In this document: positions 2,562 to 43,338 of the stretch, piece after piece
Layout of the letters: each line of letters opens with the position of its first letter
Position numbering within the stretch: position 1 is the first letter of the stretch
IMG/VR virus record: IMGVR_UViG_3300028610_002211
Location: 32,001 to 96,000 of that record
Length of the DNA: 64,000 bases
Source: a virus
Reading direction: 5' to 3' (one strand)
The notes under the pieces: generated by a model
What the model was told of the DNA's origin: nothing
The model's database searches: none
The model's input: only the letters and a program-made list of their open reading frames with translations
Program-made: the position numbers and the translations under genes

Positions 2562-2596
2562 TTGACAACTGAATTAGAATGATTAAGCTTATAGTA
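2562..2596 (+). promoter_or_regulatory. sigma70 cassette promoter
   Basis: TTGACA-16-TAAGCT; predicted +1 = A of ATG 2596. Confidence 0.75.
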
Positions 2597-3450
2597 TGAG
2601 CAGCGCAACACACAAAGGAGAAAACAAAATGAACGCCAAAGACAGAAATTTCGCAGAAATCACGGACAAAATCATTGCCAAACTCGAAGAAGGTACGGTG
2701 CCTTGGCATTGCCCTTGGGGAATGGCCGTTAACTTGAAATCGGGTAAGTCATATACAGGGATCAATAGCTTGGTGCTCGGTATGGCCGGTCATGAGTCCA
2801 AATTCTGGGGGACTTACAACCAAATCAAAGCGTTAGGCGGATACGTCAAAAAGGGCTCGAAGGCCCAAACAATCATTTATTGGGGTTGGGTCGAAAAAGA
2901 AGAAATTGACGAAGAGACCGGCGAAAAAGAAGTGGTTCGCCGCTTCCCAATTCTCAAAACGTTCAAGGTTTTCAACTTCGAGCAAACCGCTAATTTGACT
3001 GAGCCCAAAGTTGACACTGAAATAGTTAATGTTGATTCGATTGTAGACGGTTATGAACACTGCCCGGTCATCAATTACGGTGGTGAAAAAGCTTATTACA
3101 GACCGTCTACCGATTCGATCGGCATGCCACCGCGCGGCAATTTCGATAGTGACGCGGAACACGCTTCGACGTTGTTTCACGAGATGGTACACAGCACCGG
3201 TCACGAAAGCCGCTTGAATCGTGACGGGCTCAAAAACATCAACTTTGGCTCACAGAATTACAGCCAAGAAGAATTGGTAGCCGAACTGGGCGCAGCGTTT
3301 CTTTGTAACCAGGTTGGGATCGTTGAGCGTACGATCGACAATAGCGCAAACTACATTGCCGGTTGGCTGAGAACCCTGAAAAATGACAAAAAGATGATTG
3401 TTTTCGCCGCTGCACAAGCCCAAAAAGCCGCCGATCAGATTCTTGGTTAA
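2596..3450 (+). CDS. ardC: ArdC-like ssDNA-binding/zincin antirestriction protein (second start 2629)
   Basis: VPW..PW, YTGIN, WGTYNQ, VKKGSK, FKVFN, AYYRP..D.I.MP, HEMVHSTG, YSQEELVAELGAAFL. Confidence 0.9.
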   Translation: MSSATHKGENKMNAKDRNFAEITDKIIAKLEEGTVPWHCPWGMAVNLKSGKSYTGINSLVLGMAGHESKFWGTYNQIKALGGYVKKGSKAQTIIYWGWVEKEEIDEETGEKEVVRRFPILKTFKVFNFEQTANLTEPKVDTEIVNVDSIVDGYEHCPVINYGGEKAYYRPSTDSIGMPPRGNFDSDAEHASTLFHEMVHSTGHESRLNRDGLKNINFGSQNYSQEELVAELGAAFLCNQVGIVERTIDNSANYIAGWLRTLKNDKKMIVFAAAQAQKAADQILG

Positions 3451-19012: not shown

Positions 19013-19048
19013 TTGACATCTGAATTAAGAGGTGTTAAGCTTATAATA
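19013..19048 (+). promoter_or_regulatory. sigma70 cassette promoter
   Basis: TTGACA-17-TAAGCT with TG extension; +1 = A of ATG 19048. Confidence 0.8.
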
Positions 19049-19254
19049 TGAACAGCGCAACACAAAACACGGGAGCAAGCAAAATGAACACGGTAACACA
19101 CAGCGAAATCAAAAATGAAATTTGTGCCCAAACCCCCCGTTTTGTAGTGGCCAAAGTTGCCGGGCGCTTTGTTCAATTCACGATCCGCAGTAACGGCCAA
19201 TGGATCGAAAAAGGCAAAAAAATCGGGCTCGGGCTCGAATTGGTTTGGAGCTAA
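19048..19254 (+). CDS. cassette protein (second start 19084)
   Basis: leader MNSATQNTGASK-M. Confidence 0.65.
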   Translation: MNSATQNTGASKMNTVTHSEIKNEICAQTPRFVVAKVAGRFVQFTIRSNGQWIEKGKKIGLGLELVWS

Positions 19255-19648: not shown

Positions 19649-20150
19649 AAAAATAAATGTCACTTTTTTCTTGACTTCTGAATTAAGCGTGTTAAACTTA
19701 TAATATGAGCGCAACACAAAACACAGGGGACAAGGCAATGAAAAGTCAAATCGAGAAAAAAAGTCGCGAAATCAAAAGTCTTTTTGAGACCAGCACTGTT
19801 TCAATTACTATCGCACAAGGGAGTATTTATTTTTCGATTTGGGACAACAGAAAAGAAGATCGCGAAGAAATGGCAATCGTCAAAGCGAAAGCGGTTAAGT
19901 GGATTATGGAAAACGACGATCGCAAATGGTTGCATGCGAAATCTCGCGGTTATCGTGTTTGGTGGTGGGGCGGAAACCAAACACGCAATATGGGTTTGCG
20001 TTGTGGTATTAAAACCAAATTGACAGACGCTGAGCACCAAGCTGTTGTCGCTGGACCGGATGCGTGGCGCGCGATACAGGAAAAATAAATGTCACTTTTT
20101 TCTTGACTTCTGAATTAAGCGTGTTAAACTTATAATATGAGCGCAACACA
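19649..20150 (+). repeat. perfect 70-bp direct repeat (19649-19718 / 20081-20150), each copy a cassette promoter
   Basis: identical AAAAATAAATGTC..TTGACT-16-TAAACT..ATGAGCGCAACACA; offset 432. Confidence 0.9.
19705..20088 (+). CDS. cassette protein (second start 19738)
   Basis: leader MSATQNTGDKA-M. Confidence 0.7.
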   Translation: MSATQNTGDKAMKSQIEKKSREIKSLFETSTVSITIAQGSIYFSIWDNRKEDREEMAIVKAKAVKWIMENDDRKWLHAKSRGYRVWWWGGNQTRNMGLRCGIKTKLTDAEHQAVVAGPDAWRAIQEK

Positions 20151-20430
20151 CAAAGGAGCAAGCAAAATGTTTGGACAAAACAGAATTGAAATAGTCAAAG
20201 AGACCCGTGATGATGGAACCGGCGCTTTTGAACGTTTGACCGATTCAGCGTTTTACTCGGTTAATCCCGAGCGTTGGACTAATGAAGCCGGGCGCCGATC
20301 TTGTCAGTTGGTTCTTTACTTCGAGATCCCGAGCGGGACAAAAGTTCCTGTGTTGGTAGCCGAACAAGATGATAGCTTTGGCCGGGCGCAGCTGTGGGCG
20401 CATGTCGCCGAATGTACCGCGCTAAGGTAA
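20137..20430 (+). CDS. cassette protein (second start 20167)
   Basis: leader MSATHKGASK-M. Confidence 0.7.
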   Translation: MSATHKGASKMFGQNRIEIVKETRDDGTGAFERLTDSAFYSVNPERWTNEAGRRSCQLVLYFEIPSGTKVPVLVAEQDDSFGRAQLWAHVAECTALR

Positions 20431-23248: not shown

Positions 23249-23284
23249 TTGACATCTGAATTAAGGGGTGTTAAGTTTATAGTA
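23249..23284 (+). promoter_or_regulatory. sigma70 cassette promoter
   Basis: TTGACA-17-TAAGTT; +1 = A of ATG 23284. Confidence 0.8.
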
Positions 23285-23493
23285 TGAACAGCGCAACACA
23301 CAAAGGAGCCAAGACAATGAAAAGCGAAGAAATGATAGCCAAAATTGAAAGTGAAAAGAGGGAAGTTAATCGGCGCCTTAAGGATTACGATCTGGCGCAA
23401 ACTACACCAAATAATTTGACAATCAGGGTGATAAGCCGTTTAAAAGGCAAGTTGTCTGGATTAGAGTTTGCCTTAAAACTGTTGAAAAAATAA
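23284..23493 (+). CDS. cassette protein, GxLxGL.FAL family (second start 23317)
   Basis: leader MNSATHKGAKT-M; RLKGKLSGLEFALKLL. Confidence 0.7.
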   Translation: MNSATHKGAKTMKSEEMIAKIESEKREVNRRLKDYDLAQTTPNNLTIRVISRLKGKLSGLEFALKLLKK

Positions 23494-23737: not shown

Positions 23738-25015
23738 ATGAAAAACGTAACACAAGAAAGAAAAATTTTTTGGTACAATCGTTTCGATTTTTTGGCGGTA
23801 GCAATTCTTTTTTGGGCCACTATCAAAAAGAGCGCTTTCAACAATGCGCGCTTGGTTTTCAACGGCGAAACCCGCGTTGTTAGGGGTCGGACCGAATATT
23901 CACCCAACATCACAGAATACGGTTTTGAAGTTGTTTGCGACATCAACGATCATATCGAAATCCCTGGACACCGCTTTGTTGGAATCGCCGTAAACAAAGG
24001 ACCGGGTTGGATCGTTACCAACTTCACTGACGATTTCAAATTCACCAAAGAGGTTGTTGACTCTTTGGATCCACAACGTTGTGATATGTGCGGACACAAA
24101 AGAGACCGGGTTCGTTTGATGATTCTCGAAAACACCGATACCAAAGAGCTTGTGATCGTGGGTGGCAGCTGCGCAAAGAATTTTCGCAACGTCAATCTTG
24201 AAGACTTGGTCCGCAAAATGACAATTTTCTCAAGCAACTTTGGCTGTATGGACCCTGATGAATTGGGCGGTTTTGGCGGCGGCGGTCGTAGAATTTTGGA
24301 TTTGGTTGAGTCGATCGCGGTTGGCGAATTGTTGATCTCTCGACTCGGGTACACCTCAAGAAAAAAAGCAGATATAGGAATGACTTATGCTACTTCAGAT
24401 TTGATCGCCGATTATTTCGCGAGCAAGGGTAAGTCTTACAAATCCATCAAAGCCGTTATGGACCGCTCAAGGTTAGACCTTGCTCAGCGCATTAAAGAGC
24501 TTACAAACGGCGGTCTGAAGGCGCTTAGGGCTCATTTCGAGCGCGCTAACGAGCGCCGTTGGTCTGAATTCAACAGCAACATGGTTGTTTGGTTGTCTTG
24601 TAAAGAAGACGTTCCGCTTGGTGTCGCTGCTTACCTCGCTTTTGTCAACCTCGAAGGCGCCAAAGAATCGGACCGGACCGATCAGAAAGTTGCCGGCTTC
24701 GACGGTGCACCGATCAAAAAAATGTCAGATTTCGGTTGGTTCAAAGTGGTAAACGTTAGAGCAAAGGAGAATGATTACACTGGTAACACTGATTTTTGTT
24801 TCACTTGTTTGAACGCCGATTCACAAAAACTTTGGTTCAAGGTTGGCGAGAATAGCGTTGCAAATAAAGCTTATGATCAAGTTGTCTCGGGTGATGGGGT
24901 TAACCAAGATCAAGAGATCTGGATCGATGTTCGTGGCAAATTGACCCGAAGCAAAAGTGAAATTGCTTTTGCTTCGCACATCAAATTCAAAAAAGTTGAA
25001 ATCCGCACAATCTAA
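23738..25015 (+). CDS. large hypothetical protein with Zn ribbon and probable C-terminal OB fold
   Basis: CDMC..R.R....VGGSC; beta-rich C-terminus. Confidence 0.75.
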   Translation: MKNVTQERKIFWYNRFDFLAVAILFWATIKKSAFNNARLVFNGETRVVRGRTEYSPNITEYGFEVVCDINDHIEIPGHRFVGIAVNKGPGWIVTNFTDDFKFTKEVVDSLDPQRCDMCGHKRDRVRLMILENTDTKELVIVGGSCAKNFRNVNLEDLVRKMTIFSSNFGCMDPDELGGFGGGGRRILDLVESIAVGELLISRLGYTSRKKADIGMTYATSDLIADYFASKGKSYKSIKAVMDRSRLDLAQRIKELTNGGLKALRAHFERANERRWSEFNSNMVVWLSCKEDVPLGVAAYLAFVNLEGAKESDRTDQKVAGFDGAPIKKMSDFGWFKVVNVRAKENDYTGNTDFCFTCLNADSQKLWFKVGENSVANKAYDQVVSGDGVNQDQEIWIDVRGKLTRSKSEIAFASHIKFKKVEIRTI

Positions 25016-25033
25016 ACAATTTCGAAAAGCAAA

Positions 25034-25066
25034 CAAAGGGTGCGGGAAACCGCGCTCTTTGTCTTT
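25034..25066 (+). terminator. GNRA-capped hairpin, possibly a bidirectional terminator
   Basis: CAAAGGGTGCGG-GAAA-CCGCGCTCTTTG. Confidence 0.6.
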
Positions 25067-25211
25067 GCAGAATGTCCAGGGCGCCCTTGTGCGCGCGCCC
25101 GCGCGCGGGCGCATACTCGGGCAAGGGTTAAACACAACGGCCGTTAGAACGGCGCACAAAGGTTCTGAGAAGGAAGTGAGATAAACAGATCCTAAAGGAT
25201 AATATCTAAAT

Positions 25212-25228
25212 TGCAATCTGCGTGCCAA
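25212..25228 (-). promoter_or_regulatory. sigma54 (-24/-12) site A
   Basis: minus strand TTGGCACGCAGATTGCA. Confidence 0.7.
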
Positions 25229-25268
25229 AGGAAAAATAATTTTTTTTAAAATAAAAGTGAGAATTTTC

Positions 25269-25303
25269 TTGACATCTGAATTAGCTGTGTTAAGTTTATA
25301 ATA
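25269..25303 (+). promoter_or_regulatory. sigma70 cassette promoter
   Basis: TTGACA-16-TAAGTT; +1 = A of ATG 25303. Confidence 0.75.
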
Positions 25304-25476
25304 TGAGCGCAACAATAAGGAGCAAGACAATGAACGTTAAAATGAAAAAAGGAGAAACAGGTTATTTCAAGGGTGACAAAATACAATTCACCGGAAAAGA
25401 AGAAGTTCTTTACGGTGGGCTTTTCGATGAGTTTGTTTATCTCGAAGGTTATAAAAAAGCAGCTAAAAAAGCATAA
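25303..25476 (+). CDS. 57-aa cassette protein (second start 25330; not in ORF track)
   Basis: leader MSATIRSKT-M; TAAGGAG SD; TAATG coupling to next gene. Confidence 0.65.
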   Translation: MSATIRSKTMNVKMKKGETGYFKGDKIQFTGKEEVLYGGLFDEFVYLEGYKKAAKKA

Positions 25477-25817
25477 TGCACAAAGGAGCAAGTAAAATGA
25501 ACACCACTAACAATAATAAAAATACTGTCGAAGAAAAAAGAACAACAATCGAGGTTTTCGACCCTAAAAAATTCGATCACAACCAAAGGTGGTTTCAACC
25601 GATCAACAATTTTGCTTTTCTTGGACAAGCTTCCGGTATGGCGCTCGCTCACGATCCGATTTATAGGGATAGTCTATGGGCCGAAACAGTACCGCACCCT
25701 AATTTTTTGCGCGATGTCGAGAGAAAATTTCCCGGTCATGTGTTGGTTTATGATGATATGGGTCATGGACGCGATTGGATTCTCTCGATCAAAGGTTCTA
25801 TTCCTTCGAACGAATAG
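25476..25817 (+). CDS. hypothetical protein (second start 25497)
   Basis: partial leader MHKGASK-M. Confidence 0.7.
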   Translation: MHKGASKMNTTNNNKNTVEEKRTTIEVFDPKKFDHNQRWFQPINNFAFLGQASGMALAHDPIYRDSLWAETVPHPNFLRDVERKFPGHVLVYDDMGHGRDWILSIKGSIPSNE

Positions 25818-25818
25818 C

Positions 25819-25924
25819 GTTCAACGCCCTTGTGCGCGCCCCTGTGGTAACTTTTGTTTGTCTCCTGTGTTGCGCTAACCATGGGGATTTGAGTCGAACA
25901 GGAGCGCGCACAAGGGTGTTGAAC
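25819..25924. repeat. 27-bp inverted repeat with 52-nt loop (candidate ncRNA)
   Basis: arms 25819-25845 / 25898-25924, 25/27 complementary. Confidence 0.85.
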
Positions 25925-25985
25925 CCGTTCAACAGCTTCAATGAACCTGCCAAAATAAACAGATCCTAAAGGATAATATCTAAAT

Positions 25986-26002
25986 TGCAATTCACGTGCC
26001 AA
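25986..26002 (-). promoter_or_regulatory. sigma54 (-24/-12) site B
   Basis: minus strand TTGGCACGTGAATTGCA. Confidence 0.7.
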
Positions 26003-26043
26003 GAAAAAAACCACTTCTGTTTAATTTAAATGTCGTTTTTCGG

Positions 26044-26079
26044 TTGACATCTAAATTAGAATGATTAAGCTTTATAGTA
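26044..26079 (+). promoter_or_regulatory. sigma70 cassette promoter
   Basis: TTGACA-16-TAAGCT; ATG 26079 lies 8 nt after the -10. Confidence 0.75.
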
Positions 26080-26300
26080 TGAGCGCAACACAAAACACGG
26101 GAGAAAACAAAATGACAAAAATCGAAATGGCTCAGTATATTGTTGAGGTCTTGTATCAGTTGGACCACGTACCTGCCCGAGATCACATCCATGTCCAGCG
26201 AATAGCTCGCAGGCCGAAGGTTGCCTTGGAGAATTTGTACGAAAGAGCTTTCGTGGTCGAAGAAGAGCTGAAGGCGAAAAAAACCATAGCTAGCCTGTAA
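26079..26300 (+). CDS. cassette protein (second start 26112)
   Basis: leader MSATQNTGENK-M. Confidence 0.7.
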   Translation: MSATQNTGENKMTKIEMAQYIVEVLYQLDHVPARDHIHVQRIARRPKVALENLYERAFVVEEELKAKKTIASL

Positions 26301-26347
26301 ACCAAAACTGCAAACGGGGGGGGTAACACTCCCCGAAAGGGTGTCCG

Positions 26348-26698
26348 ATGAACGACAAAATAAAAAAAATACTGTTCGAATTGTCGGCCGATTTCACTTT
26401 GGCTGGTATCCAACAAGGGCGCAAATCGTTACACGAGGATAAAGCGCTTTGCCTCAAGGTTTCGAAATTACGAAACGCGATCGATCTTTTGTCACTCCAA
26501 AGAGCGCAACTTGCGCGTTGTTGGGAAGGTGTTTCGATTACTTCTATCGTTGAAACGGTCAAAGAATGTTTGGGCGCAGCGCTTGAATTGGGATCTTTTT
26601 TGGGTAATAACTACCCCGCCGAGTATATCGAAATCGAGTTGCATGGTACAAAATACGTCGAAAAATGTTGGGCCTTGATTGGCGTTTTGTCCGTTTAA
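26348..26698 (+). CDS. hypothetical protein
   Basis: SD AGGGTG. Confidence 0.65.
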   Translation: MNDKIKKILFELSADFTLAGIQQGRKSLHEDKALCLKVSKLRNAIDLLSLQRAQLARCWEGVSITSIVETVKECLGAALELGSFLGNNYPAEYIEIELHGTKYVEKCWALIGVLSV

Positions 26699-26720
26699 AA
26701 TCGTATTTCATCCCGGTTTA

Positions 26721-26749
26721 AAGGTGTTTCGAAAGGGGCGCCTTTTTTT
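26721..26749 (+). terminator. intrinsic terminator
   Basis: AAGGTGTTTC-GAAA-GGGGCGCCTT plus T run. Confidence 0.75.
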
Positions 26750-26781
26750 ATTTCTGTGTAATTCACAAGTCAGGATAATCT

Positions 26782-26798
26782 TTGGCACGTAAATTGCT
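26782..26798 (+). promoter_or_regulatory. sigma54 (-24/-12) site C
   Basis: TTGGCACGTAAATTGCT. Confidence 0.7.
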
Positions 26799-26923
26799 AC
26801 GCGTGTTGTAAATATTATCCTTTAGAATCTGTCCATCCGTTTCGGCGTCCGAATTAACCGCTTATTTTTGTTGGCGTTAGGCTTTGTGTTTGAAAACGAG
26901 TTCAAGGGCCTTGTGCGCCTTCT

Positions 26924-26990
26924 CAAGGCGTTTTAACGGGTCAACCTATACCAGGGGTTGAGTTAAAAAAACGGTCGTTAAAACGCCTTG
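26924..26990. repeat. 15-bp perfect inverted repeat with nested hairpin
   Basis: CAAGGCGTTTTAACG / CGTTAAAACGCCTTG; inner TCAACC/GGTTGA. Confidence 0.85.
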
Positions 26991-27028
26991 TGGATATCTT
27001 GTGTTTAATTCACATGTTGATAAATAGT

Positions 27029-27045
27029 TTGGAATGAATATTGCA
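27029..27045 (+). promoter_or_regulatory. sigma54-like site D
   Basis: TTGGAATGAATATTGCA (GG-N10-GC) followed by the shared TTTAGAATCTGT box. Confidence 0.5.
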
Positions 27046-27142
27046 ACGCGCGCTTGTTTACATTTAGAATCTGTACATCCGCTTCAACCTTCGATATAAA
27101 TTGCGTTTTGACTTTTTAGTTAAAGAGTGTTAAAACCTGTTC

Positions 27143-27643
27143 ATGAAAATTCTAAGACGAAAAAACATAAAAAGCTTTCCGGGTTATCAAATTTCAAACT
27201 TTGGAACAGTTAGGAGAGAAGTTTATAAATTGTACGGGATTAAGGAAACGAGGATATTTCCTCATATCAATAATGGTTATCAAATTGCCAATTTAAAAAG
27301 CGAATCTGGGGAGCAAAAGAAAGTGCCTATTCACAAACTTGTTGCAAAAGCTTTCGTTTCCGGCTGGTTTGAGGGCGCAATTGTTGATCATATCGACGAG
27401 AATAAGCAGAATAATTTTTTCAAAAATCTTCGCTGGGTAACTCATCGCTTTAATTCCTCTCGACGTAAGCGCGATCTGCCTTTGAATGTTTCAAAATTTC
27501 GAAATCGAAATAGTTATATTGTTCGAGTTTATTTCGGTGGTGAAATCGTTTATTTGGGCTCATATAAGACGGTTGAAGAAGCTTCGAGGGTTGCTGAAAG
27601 GGCGCGCAAGCAAGCGGAAAAAGGGGAAAAACCAACTCGTTAA
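27143..27643 (+). CDS. NUMOD4-HNH-AP2 homing endonuclease
   Basis: YQISNFG.VR, IHKLVAKAF, VDHIDENKQNN..NLRW, YLGSYKT.EEA. Confidence 0.9.
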   Translation: MKILRRKNIKSFPGYQISNFGTVRREVYKLYGIKETRIFPHINNGYQIANLKSESGEQKKVPIHKLVAKAFVSGWFEGAIVDHIDENKQNNFFKNLRWVTHRFNSSRRKRDLPLNVSKFRNRNSYIVRVYFGGEIVYLGSYKTVEEASRVAERARKQAEKGEKPTR

Positions 27644-42426: not shown

Positions 42427-43338
42427 ATGACCGAAGAAGTGGCTTTAGAAAAGGCGGAAAGTGTTGGTGTTGAACATGAATACACCGATTTGGAAGTTAA
42501 CGAAATTTCAGTGGTAGATAGGCCAGCAAATCAAAAAGAATTTGCTGTAATCAAATGCGTTGGAAACAGCGCAACACAAAAAGGAGTGGAACCAATGGCC
42601 GATCAAGTAGCGAAATCTACAGAAGAGGCTGCTAATGTCGAAGTGGTTCCTGTCGAAGTGGCCAAGAACGATGATGACTCGGCCATGGAGCAGGCGCTTG
42701 AAAACCTCGACACTATTTCGAAATCGATTGCGGGGTTAGCCGCTCAAGTCGAAGACGAAGAAGGCGGCAAAACCGAAACCGAAACAGAGGCGGAAAAGGC
42801 CGCCAAAAAAGAAACACCGGCAACGATCTTTGCCAACGCGTTGAAGGCAACCGGCGTTAAAGGCGAAGCGCTCAAAACCGCGCTCAAAAAGTACGAAAAA
42901 GTTTGTGCTTGTGGTTCGGCGACGGTTCAAAAGACCGAAACCAAAACCGAAACCGAAGGCGCCGAAACCGAAACCGAAGGGGACAACGATTTCATGGGGA
43001 ATCTTGCGGCGGCGGTTACTAAAGCCAAGGTGTTGACCCCGAAACGGCTTGCGGCGTTAAAAGCGTTGCAAGAACAGTTGGCCAAGATGATCGGTGAAAT
43101 GGAAGGAATCCCTCATTCCAAATCACCGAAAACCAAGGTTCCGAAAAACGCAAGTTTCGGCGCAAGCGGTCTAAGCACGATCACAAAAAGCTTCGAAACC
43201 ATATCGACGGCGCTGAAAACGCTAACTGGTCGAATCGAACAGATCGAAAACACCCGTCAAGGATCGAAAAGCCTTGGCGAAAGCGGCACTGTAACAACAA
43301 AAAAGGCGGATAAAGATCTTTGGGACAACGTTCTGTAA
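42427..43338 (+). CDS. capsid scaffold protein (internal start at 42595)
   Basis: EISVVDRPAN N-terminal motif, acidic/coiled-coil body, located between protease and capsid genes. Confidence 0.75.
   Translation: MTEEVALEKAESVGVEHEYTDLEVNEISVVDRPANQKEFAVIKCVGNSATQKGVEPMADQVAKSTEEAANVEVVPVEVAKNDDDSAMEQALENLDTISKSIAGLAAQVEDEEGGKTETETEAEKAAKKETPATIFANALKATGVKGEALKTALKKYEKVCACGSATVQKTETKTETEGAETETEGDNDFMGNLAAAVTKAKVLTPKRLAALKALQEQLAKMIGEMEGIPHSKSPKTKVPKNASFGASGLSTITKSFETISTALKTLTGRIEQIENTRQGSKSLGESGTVTTKKADKDLWDNVL

Follow-up and report, generated by a model that had tools for sequence, protein, structure and literature searches.

What does a long hairpin do in a phage genome when its loop mirrors the leader found in front of the phage's own early genes, and from which strand would it act? 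The hairpin in question lies in a window of 64 kb, by which we mean the whole stretch of DNA analysed, namely bases 32001-96000 of a 104,305-bp IMG/VR virus record from an uncultured phage. Nearly all genes of this phage are on the plus strand, and its terminase is only ~26% identical to any counterpart from a cultured phage. Pfam models detected no sigma70-family factor, enhancer-binding protein, CsrA, RNase III or reverse transcriptase in the phage, the last of which speaks against a retron. A promoter hairpin for a phage RNA polymerase was likewise set aside, as PF00940 had no match in the phage, though this model was silent in all control genomes too, which makes the evidence weak. We surmise that the hairpin probably controls early protein synthesis. 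Our favoured reading, a tentative one, is that a plus-strand anti-leader RNA pairs with the early leaders and lowers their translation; that this RNA is made, that it pairs inside the cell and that translation falls as a result are all inferred from sequence.

Relatives of the element were sought widely. None was present in the phage collection, IMG/VR gave no match by protein, arm sequence, sigma54 module or hairpin pattern, GTDB genomes gave no match, one metagenome search with the 113-aa upstream protein gave no match, and a 14-mer scan returned chance matches only. JGI metagenomes searched by the pattern of the early cassette yielded L123, a contig of 1,915 nt that carries the hairpin, L124, which carries cassettes only (four early ones in 2 kb), and L122, a chance match. 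The element is known from two sequences, the window and L123, and the conservation statistics given below are correspondingly thin.

The hairpin and the leader copy in its loop

Exactly as claimed in the preliminary description, two arms of 27 nt pair at 25 of 27 positions (93% complementary) and enclose 52 nt (Table 1). The structure begins 1 nt past the TAG stop codon (25815-25817) of an upstream early gene. No inverted repeat elsewhere in the 64-kb window is as long or as good; a 21-nt arm pattern matches only the two arm positions of the window (0 matches expected), and a covariance model of the hairpin found no second copy. The predicted RNA fold amounts to -65.9 kcal/mol on the plus strand (z -7.8) and to -58 kcal/mol on the minus strand (z -5.9), and the plus-strand fold is the more stable one by 5-8 kcal/mol in both phages. 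Inside the loop, pairing of GGGA (25884-25887) with TCTC (25861-25864) gives an apical loop that displays an 11-mer described below; in the consensus fold of the two phages the complement of the 11-mer again occupies the apical loop, and the 4-bp helix closing this loop is maintained via G-U changes.

The 11-mer, AGCGCAACACA, is the tag of the early leader. Eight exact copies occur in the window against 1.2 expected: seven are on the plus strand, six of them right behind early promoters and one at 42568 without a promoter, and the sole minus-strand copy is the hairpin loop. The early promoters, including the one in front of the variant tag at 25306, are near-identical: TTGACA, preceded by AT-rich sequence, is followed after 16 nt by a -10 box of the TAAGCT/TAAACT type, then by TATAAT and ATG. 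The leader runs from this ATG through (NNN), AGCGCAACACA, a short A/C stretch, GGAG and an A-rich stretch to the start codon ATG. The conserved TATAAT sits between the properly spaced -10 box (16 nt; TAAGCT, TAAACT or TATACT) and the predicted +1 ATG. Early promoters of L123 and L124 show TATACT/TAAACT at the same spacing, from which it follows that early RNA probably starts at or near the promoter-proximal ATG, a placement derived from promoter geometry.

On the minus strand, positions 25876-25851 read AGCGCAACACAGGAGACAAACAAAAG, and the loop as a whole takes the form ATG-GTT-AGCGCAACACA-GGAGACAAACAAAAG. Together with 25880-25882 (CAT on the plus strand, ATG on the minus strand), the loop copy begins at the leader's predicted +1 AUG and stops shortly before the start codon; it lacks 4-7 middle bases, an ATG after the Shine-Dalgarno (SD) sequence and any promoter sequence. 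The previously proposed identity of 25851-25876 as a minus-strand leader copy that has lost its SD-led ATG was upheld by local alignment, in which loop and leader score 35.5 compared with 15.9 +/- 2.4 for shuffles (maximum 24), and the match is restricted to the transcribed leader, the promoter being excluded. A profile built from seven leaders returned the loop as the top minus-strand match of the 104-kb genome at E = 0.57, a value that is this weak because the missing 4-7 leader bases open an internal gap. The hairpin arms are not leader-like (score 14-15, within shuffles).

Table 1. Positions in the window of the hairpin, its parts, the neighbouring features and the early leaders; energies are those predicted for pairing with the plus-strand loop
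Feature	Position	Strand	Remarks
5' arm, 27 nt	25819..25845		core CGCCCTTGTGCGC identical in L123
Loop, 52 nt	25846..25897		75% identical to L123 loop
Putative anti-leader	25851..25876	+	U/G-rich, no A in 26 nt; leader copy without start codon on minus strand
Second conserved loop block (AACCATGGGGATTTGAGTCGA)	25877..25897		no other copy in window
3' arm, 27 nt	25898..25924
Upstream early gene	25497..25817	+	106 aa from ATG 25497; ORF open from 25476; from ORF list
Sigma54-type site B and box	25959..26001	-	TGGCACG-N4-TTGCA at 26001-25986, box TTTAGGATCTGT at 25970-25959; points into hairpin
Sigma54-type sites	25212-25227; 25986-26001; 26783-26798; 27030-27045	-; -; +; +	last site is a variant
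Early leader	2596..2631	+	-31.8 kcal/mol; possible target
Early leader	19048..19086	+	-33.0 kcal/mol; possible target
Early leader	19705..19740	+	-32.1 kcal/mol; possible target
Early leader	20137..20169	+	-33.9 kcal/mol; possible target
Early leader	23284..23319	+	-28.4 kcal/mol; possible target
Early leader, variant AGCGCAACAAT	25303..25332	+	variant tag at 25306; heads operon ending at hairpin; -27.2 kcal/mol
Leader copy without promoter, head-gene region	42568..42597	+	-27.7 kcal/mol; possible target; profile E 0.15
Next early cassette	26044..26114	+	TTGACA, 16 nt, TAAGCT, predicted +1 ATG 26079, leader, SD, ATG 26112

The early gene in front of the hairpin is a real one, as homologues that are 73-95% identical are found in other metagenomes, with P0004, P0007 and P0009 at 94-95% and P0005, P0010 and P0011 at 73-75%. 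Further contigs, two of which measure 106 kb and 44 kb, bear copies of its protein that are identical, 95% and 74% identical. At 25476-25499, in front of this 106-aa gene, stands a truncated leader (ATGCACAAAGGAGCAAGTAAAATG) that lacks a promoter. In P0011, a homologue of 73% identity, the called protein begins with the translated leader, MSATQ, indicating that a full leader is present there. For the downstream 116-aa protein, an Atlas search returned generic helical bundles only.

Conservation of the hairpin in a distant phage

Positions 1186-1373 of L123 align with 25815-26008 of the window, and both phages share the same order of parts: TAG stop codon, hairpin, spacer, minus-strand sigma54-type site, early cassette and gene. 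The protein behind the cassette (window 26348-26698) is 39-41% identical to its L123 counterpart, while the gene before the L123 hairpin has no homologue in the present genome and the upstream genes are unrelated, so that the two phages must be far apart. The hairpin is linked to the downstream cassette in both of them, with a different gene upstream. The homology starts exactly at TAGCGTT (25815-25821; L123:1186-1192), and hence the stop codon of two unrelated upstream genes lies inside the conserved block.

Arms and loop are each 75% identical between the window and L123, the sigma54-type module 78% and the cassette 73%, compared with 50% for the 30-nt spacer after the hairpin and 48% for a non-homologous control. 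The L123 stem is Watson-Crick paired throughout (26/26), and in an ungapped alignment neither sequence loses any of the 36 pairs of the consensus structure, whereas sliding the partners by 1-3 columns lowers pairing to 26-50%. Double, compensatory changes affect eight pairs, six of which belong to the main stem, as in the exchange of GTTCAAC/GTTGAAC for GTTAAGC/GCTTAAC. The L123 loop also resembles L123's own leaders, with a score of 29 compared with 16 +/- 2.7 for shuffles; since the tag AGCGCAACACA is the same in both lineages, there is no covariation between loop and leader to read. This comparison, of two sequences, supports the view that the element is under selection as a hairpin with a leader-related loop.

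Conserved arms around a drifting loop had been put forward in the preliminary description as the pattern that would point to a DNA element or a decayed inverted cassette. In L123 both parts are conserved, the loop at 75% including its leader-like portion. A functionless, decayed inverted duplicate of an early cassette would account for a shortened leader copy devoid of promoter and start codon, yet the element has been kept in a phage whose neighbouring protein is only ~40% identical and whose adjacent spacer has been randomised, its stem carries compensatory changes, and no trace of a promoter is seen. As loop and arms are conserved and the flanking spacer and genes are not, we regard this explanation as untenable and give it next to no weight.

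An element that acts as DNA is also improbable, though less so. It might consist of two inverted ~20-bp protein-binding sites (GTTCAA-N3-CCTTGTGCGC), of a cruciform, or of a small mobile inverted repeat that marks a module boundary. A 13-bp arm core is invariant between the phages, the L123 homology starts exactly at the hairpin, its size and 27-bp terminal repeats resemble those of small inverted-repeat elements, and the arm-core 10-mer CCTTGTGCGC recurs at 25085 and 26909 in adjoining non-coding units, with the GTTCAA flank at 26909. On the other hand, the compensatory changes extend over 24 bp of each arm, far beyond a protein half-site, each genome holds a single copy without target-site duplication at the same position in two distant phages, and the conserved leader-like loop would be left unexplained. 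For the same reasons of single copy, position and lack of a flanking direct repeat, a miniature inverted-repeat mobile element (Correia-like) was rejected. An integron attC site was dismissed as well, because the polarity is reversed relative to 5'-RYYYAAC ... GTTRRRY-3' (GTTCAAC...GTTGAAC here, GTTAAGC...GCTTAAC in L123) and GTTCAAC also breaks GTTRRRY.

L123 also bears on several other readings. Protein coding was rejected, as the minus-strand ATG (25882) is ATA in L123 and the spanning open reading frame has no protein homologue; read-through of the TAG codon would run into a TAA, 10 codons on in the window and 1 codon on in L123. The alternative pairings proposed earlier (CTCCTGT/ACAGGAG; TGTTGAAC/GTTCAACA) are present in the window and absent in L123, so that a structural switch is not supported. 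The suggested CsrA/RsmA site did not hold up either: its GGA is that of the SD sequence, the ACA-GGA spacing is altered in L123 (ACACCGGGAG), and the phage has no CsrA of its own.

Plus-strand and minus-strand readings

The hairpin is almost certainly transcribed on the plus strand, because it lies 1 nt past the stop codon of a real early gene and there is no plus-strand terminator from 25303 to 26720. It would thus form the untranslated tail of an early operon. An intrinsic terminator was rejected on either strand: the loop has 52 nt, and the tails CCGUUCAAC (plus) and GCUAUUCG (minus) contain no U tract, while canonical terminators are used elsewhere in the phage (26720-26755). In our favoured reading, the plus-strand loop would expose a U/G-rich anti-leader complementary to the whole early leader, from the +1 AUG through the AGCGCAACACA tag and the SD sequence up to the start codon. 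As it is rich in U and G and free of A, this loop can wobble-pair with leader variants. The predicted duplexes with eight leaders range from -27 to -34 kcal/mol, compared with -20.1 +/- 3.5 for shuffled loops, and the cost of opening the loop is ~10 kcal/mol. The complementarity to ribosome-binding sites is therefore extended, conserved and above chance, which is what a base-pairing antisense RNA calls for.

Such an RNA could act in trans on all leaders. In cis, the anti-leader of read-through transcripts could pair with the leader of the next cassette, the nearest possible target, 205 nt downstream; the constant linkage of hairpin and cassette behind differing upstream genes fits this relation. 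The ribosome-binding site would be masked by the pairing, and the duplex might also become a substrate of RNase III, with the outcome that translation of early genes would be turned down. Nested folding of the read-through RNA gave zero pairing between loop and leader, although nested folds cannot represent pairs of this kind. The consensus structure pairs at 72 of 72 cells on the plus strand and at 67 of 72 on the minus strand. Five G-U pairs on the plus strand are A-C mismatches on the minus strand, compared with one the other way, a lean that is not significant and in which three of the five fall in inner helices chosen on the plus-strand fold.

Several observations speak against the plus-strand reading. 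The hairpin lies at a conserved distance downstream of a promoter-like site on the minus strand, the terminators of two neighbouring units (A and C) follow the direction of their sites, which argues that the minus strand makes an RNA of its own, and an anti-leader supplied by the early promoters themselves would be an odd switch for shutting them off. In addition, a loop closed by a 27-bp stem limits the extent of the duplex, and neither a terminator nor a known processing site is at hand to free a small RNA.

The minus-strand site belongs to a group. Between 25016 and 27140 the motif TGGCACG-N4-TTGC(A/T) is found three times in exact form and once as a variant; the box TTTAG(G/A)ATCTGT comes after every one of these sites, and the N4 is different in each. 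A sigma70 reading, TTGCAA-N16/18-TAG(G/A)AT, fits four of the five sites when that of L123 is included, the exception being unit C with a spacing of 23; for site B, the sigma54 assignment is one by sequence match, and the sigma70 pattern TTGCAA-N16-TAGGAT also fits in the same direction. Unit A (25025-25072, minus strand) forms a long stem followed by UUUU, a U-tract terminator on the minus strand only, and in unit C (26911-26940) TTTT comes after GCGCCTT-CTC-AAGGCG on the plus strand. These strand-matched terminators suggest that the sigma54-type sites probably drive small RNAs. The -12 box of site B ends 61 nt from the hairpin and the expected start lies ~50 nt away from it. L123 has a counterpart, TGGCAT-N5-TTGCA with the same box (L123:1348-1363, minus strand), and site, box and hairpin are kept at similar spacing (29-34 nt) in both phages despite the diverged spacer.

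The 10-mer CCTTGTGCGC of the arm core is found at 25085-25094, 25828-25837, 25906-25915 (minus strand) and 26909-26918, with one further copy only in the 104-kb genome; the copies outside the arms sit in the non-coding units A and C, and GTTCAA flanks the one at 26909 too. It may be a binding site in its own right. Unit C also holds a hairpin that ranks second in the window, with arms of 15 bp that pair perfectly around a 37-nt loop (26924-26938 / 26976-26990). Directly behind the fourth, variant site lies an HNH endonuclease gene (27143-27643; PHROG E 4e-25).

The main rival of the plus-strand reading, which we consider unlikely without dismissing it, is that site B drives a ~150-nt non-coding RNA on the minus strand carrying the tag and SD sequence and no AUG. 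As a leader mimic, this decoy would soak up whatever binds the leader, be it a translational repressor, Hfq, a nuclease or 30S subunits, in the manner of CrcZ or CsrB. Promoter-like site, box and hairpin stay together in both phages, the paralogous units A and C behind the same kind of site have their strand-matched terminators, the SD sequence is kept and the start codon absent in both phages, and the first 24 nt of the structured region of unit C align with unit B as read on the minus strand. Decoy RNAs under sigma54 control are known, an example being CrcZ, which titrates Hfq via A-rich motifs (PMC4063720), and site B matches in sequence a -24 GG / -12 GC promoter in the right orientation. 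Nevertheless, a decoy requires a leader-binding factor, and the phage is without genes for CsrA, an enhancer-binding protein or a sigma factor. There is one copy of the motif (units A, C and D contain no leader-like stretch), compared with several in known decoys of the CrcZ type. Five structure cells are A-C mismatches on the minus strand, no minus-strand terminator follows the hairpin, unlike in units A and C, and L123 has ATA in place of the +1 AUG of the loop copy.

Transcription of both strands is probable, that of the minus strand from the conserved sigma54-type promoter. The minus RNA, fully complementary to the anti-leader and carrying a leader copy without a start codon, could then counteract it. 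Rather improbable is the more elaborate possibility of a two-strand RNA switch, in which the early operon makes the anti-leader strand that damps translation of all early cassettes and a host-signal-dependent sigma54 promoter makes the complementary, neutralising leader mimic; early translation would then follow the state of the host's sigma54 activator. The preliminary description had offered both a minus-strand decoy and a plus-strand multi-target antisense. A leader-related function of the hairpin is supported by L123, the plus strand being tentatively the likelier one to act; the additional claim that only a leaderless start would stay usable found no support.

A purely structural RNA is unlikely, more so than the minus-strand decoy. 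The hairpin might be an RNase III site, a protector of the 3' end of the upstream mRNA, or an insulator between converging transcription, the loop being inherited baggage. Its perfect stem of 26-27 bp has the length required by RNase III (~20 bp or more), it lies between two cistrons without a terminator, and convergent promoters flank it. It is, however, the only hairpin of its kind in the window, so that it cannot be a device for intercistronic regions in general; the phage itself encodes no RNase III, and it would be left unexplained why the leader-like loop is as conserved as the promoters when the next 30 nt are not.

Comparison with known systems

No Rfam family matches at the hairpin, including C4 antisense RNA, 6S, Y RNA-like, CsrB/RsmZ and CrcZ; cmscan of 24800-27300 at E <= 1 returned only a chance STnc40 match at 24993-25062 (E 0.66, below gathering). 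The element resembles Cuckoo/CcsR RNAs, c4 and CrcZ and belongs to none of them, as there is no Rfam match and its architecture and motif are different. In sequence, it combines a single 27-bp stem and large loop with predicted complementarity to a whole leader and a promoter-like site conserved on the opposite strand.

The c4 RNA of phages P1/P7 derives from the very transcript that contains its target, and its loops pair with downstream ribosome-binding regions and block expression; it measures 77 nt, is processed by RNase P and acts on a single operon through two short loop segments. The plus-strand reading would resemble c4 in its mode of action. Unlike c4, the present element has a single complementary stretch that matches leaders in two blocks and fits 7-8 leaders, and no Rfam match was obtained. 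Mention of the c4 antisense RNA is also made in PMC8198154. The Cuckoo/CcsR1-4 RNAs of Alphaproteobacteria carry loops with an anti-Shine-Dalgarno-like pyrimidine motif, are cut from the 3' untranslated end of mRNAs and have many mRNA targets for one RNA (PMC4615179, PMC8034643). The plus-strand reading would share with them the anti-SD loop motif, the origin in a 3' untranslated region and the many targets. By definition, Cuckoo RNAs have 2-4 adjacent hairpins, each with CCUCCUCCC in the loop (PMC4615179), and this family was rejected because one giant hairpin is found here, in which UCUCC only, within a 26-nt complement of a private leader, replaces CCUCCUCCC. Besides, the element is phage-encoded, would be aimed at the phage's own genes and has no Rfam match.

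The minus-strand reading has its closest parallel in CrcZ, a sigma54-dependent RNA that copies A-rich ribosome-binding-site motifs and titrates Hfq (PMC4063720), and also recalls CsrB/RsmZ: a sigma54-type promoter would give rise to a non-coding RNA that copies the ribosome-binding-site motif of its targets (PMC4063720, PMC5113210). It differs from CrcZ in having one motif copy in place of six, in a length of ~150 nt compared with 407 nt, and in that no binding protein or activator site was identified.

For the structural reading, the comparison is with long double-stranded stems placed between early cistrons or after a gene in transcripts without terminators, as in the RNase III sites of T7 early mRNA and lambda sib; the T7 sites are repeated between genes and contain internal loops. 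By contrast, the present phage has one site, whose stem is perfect and whose 52-nt loop is conserved and related to the leader.

A conserved private tag of no known function also precedes many genes of cluster K mycobacteriophages, where these tags are called start-associated sequences. To our knowledge, the original work on them described no complementary RNA. In the present phage, early transcripts are predicted to carry the tag at their 5' end, and the genome also contains its complement. Large lytic phages often carry one private leader before all of their early genes, for which we know of no explanation, and T4 and T7 set translation of the early class with proteins. A conserved RNA that mirrors the whole leader would give this leader a purpose, in that one molecule could set translation of the early class, and the sigma54-type promoter on the opposite strand hints that host physiology may feed into the switch.

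The early cassettes show one more peculiarity. A 13-nt inverted repeat (TAATTTAAATGTC / GACATCTAAATTA) at 26022-26034 / 26046-26058 spans the -35 box of the cassette next to the hairpin and may represent an operator or activator site, and similar AAATGTC...GACAT arrangements are seen at other cassettes.
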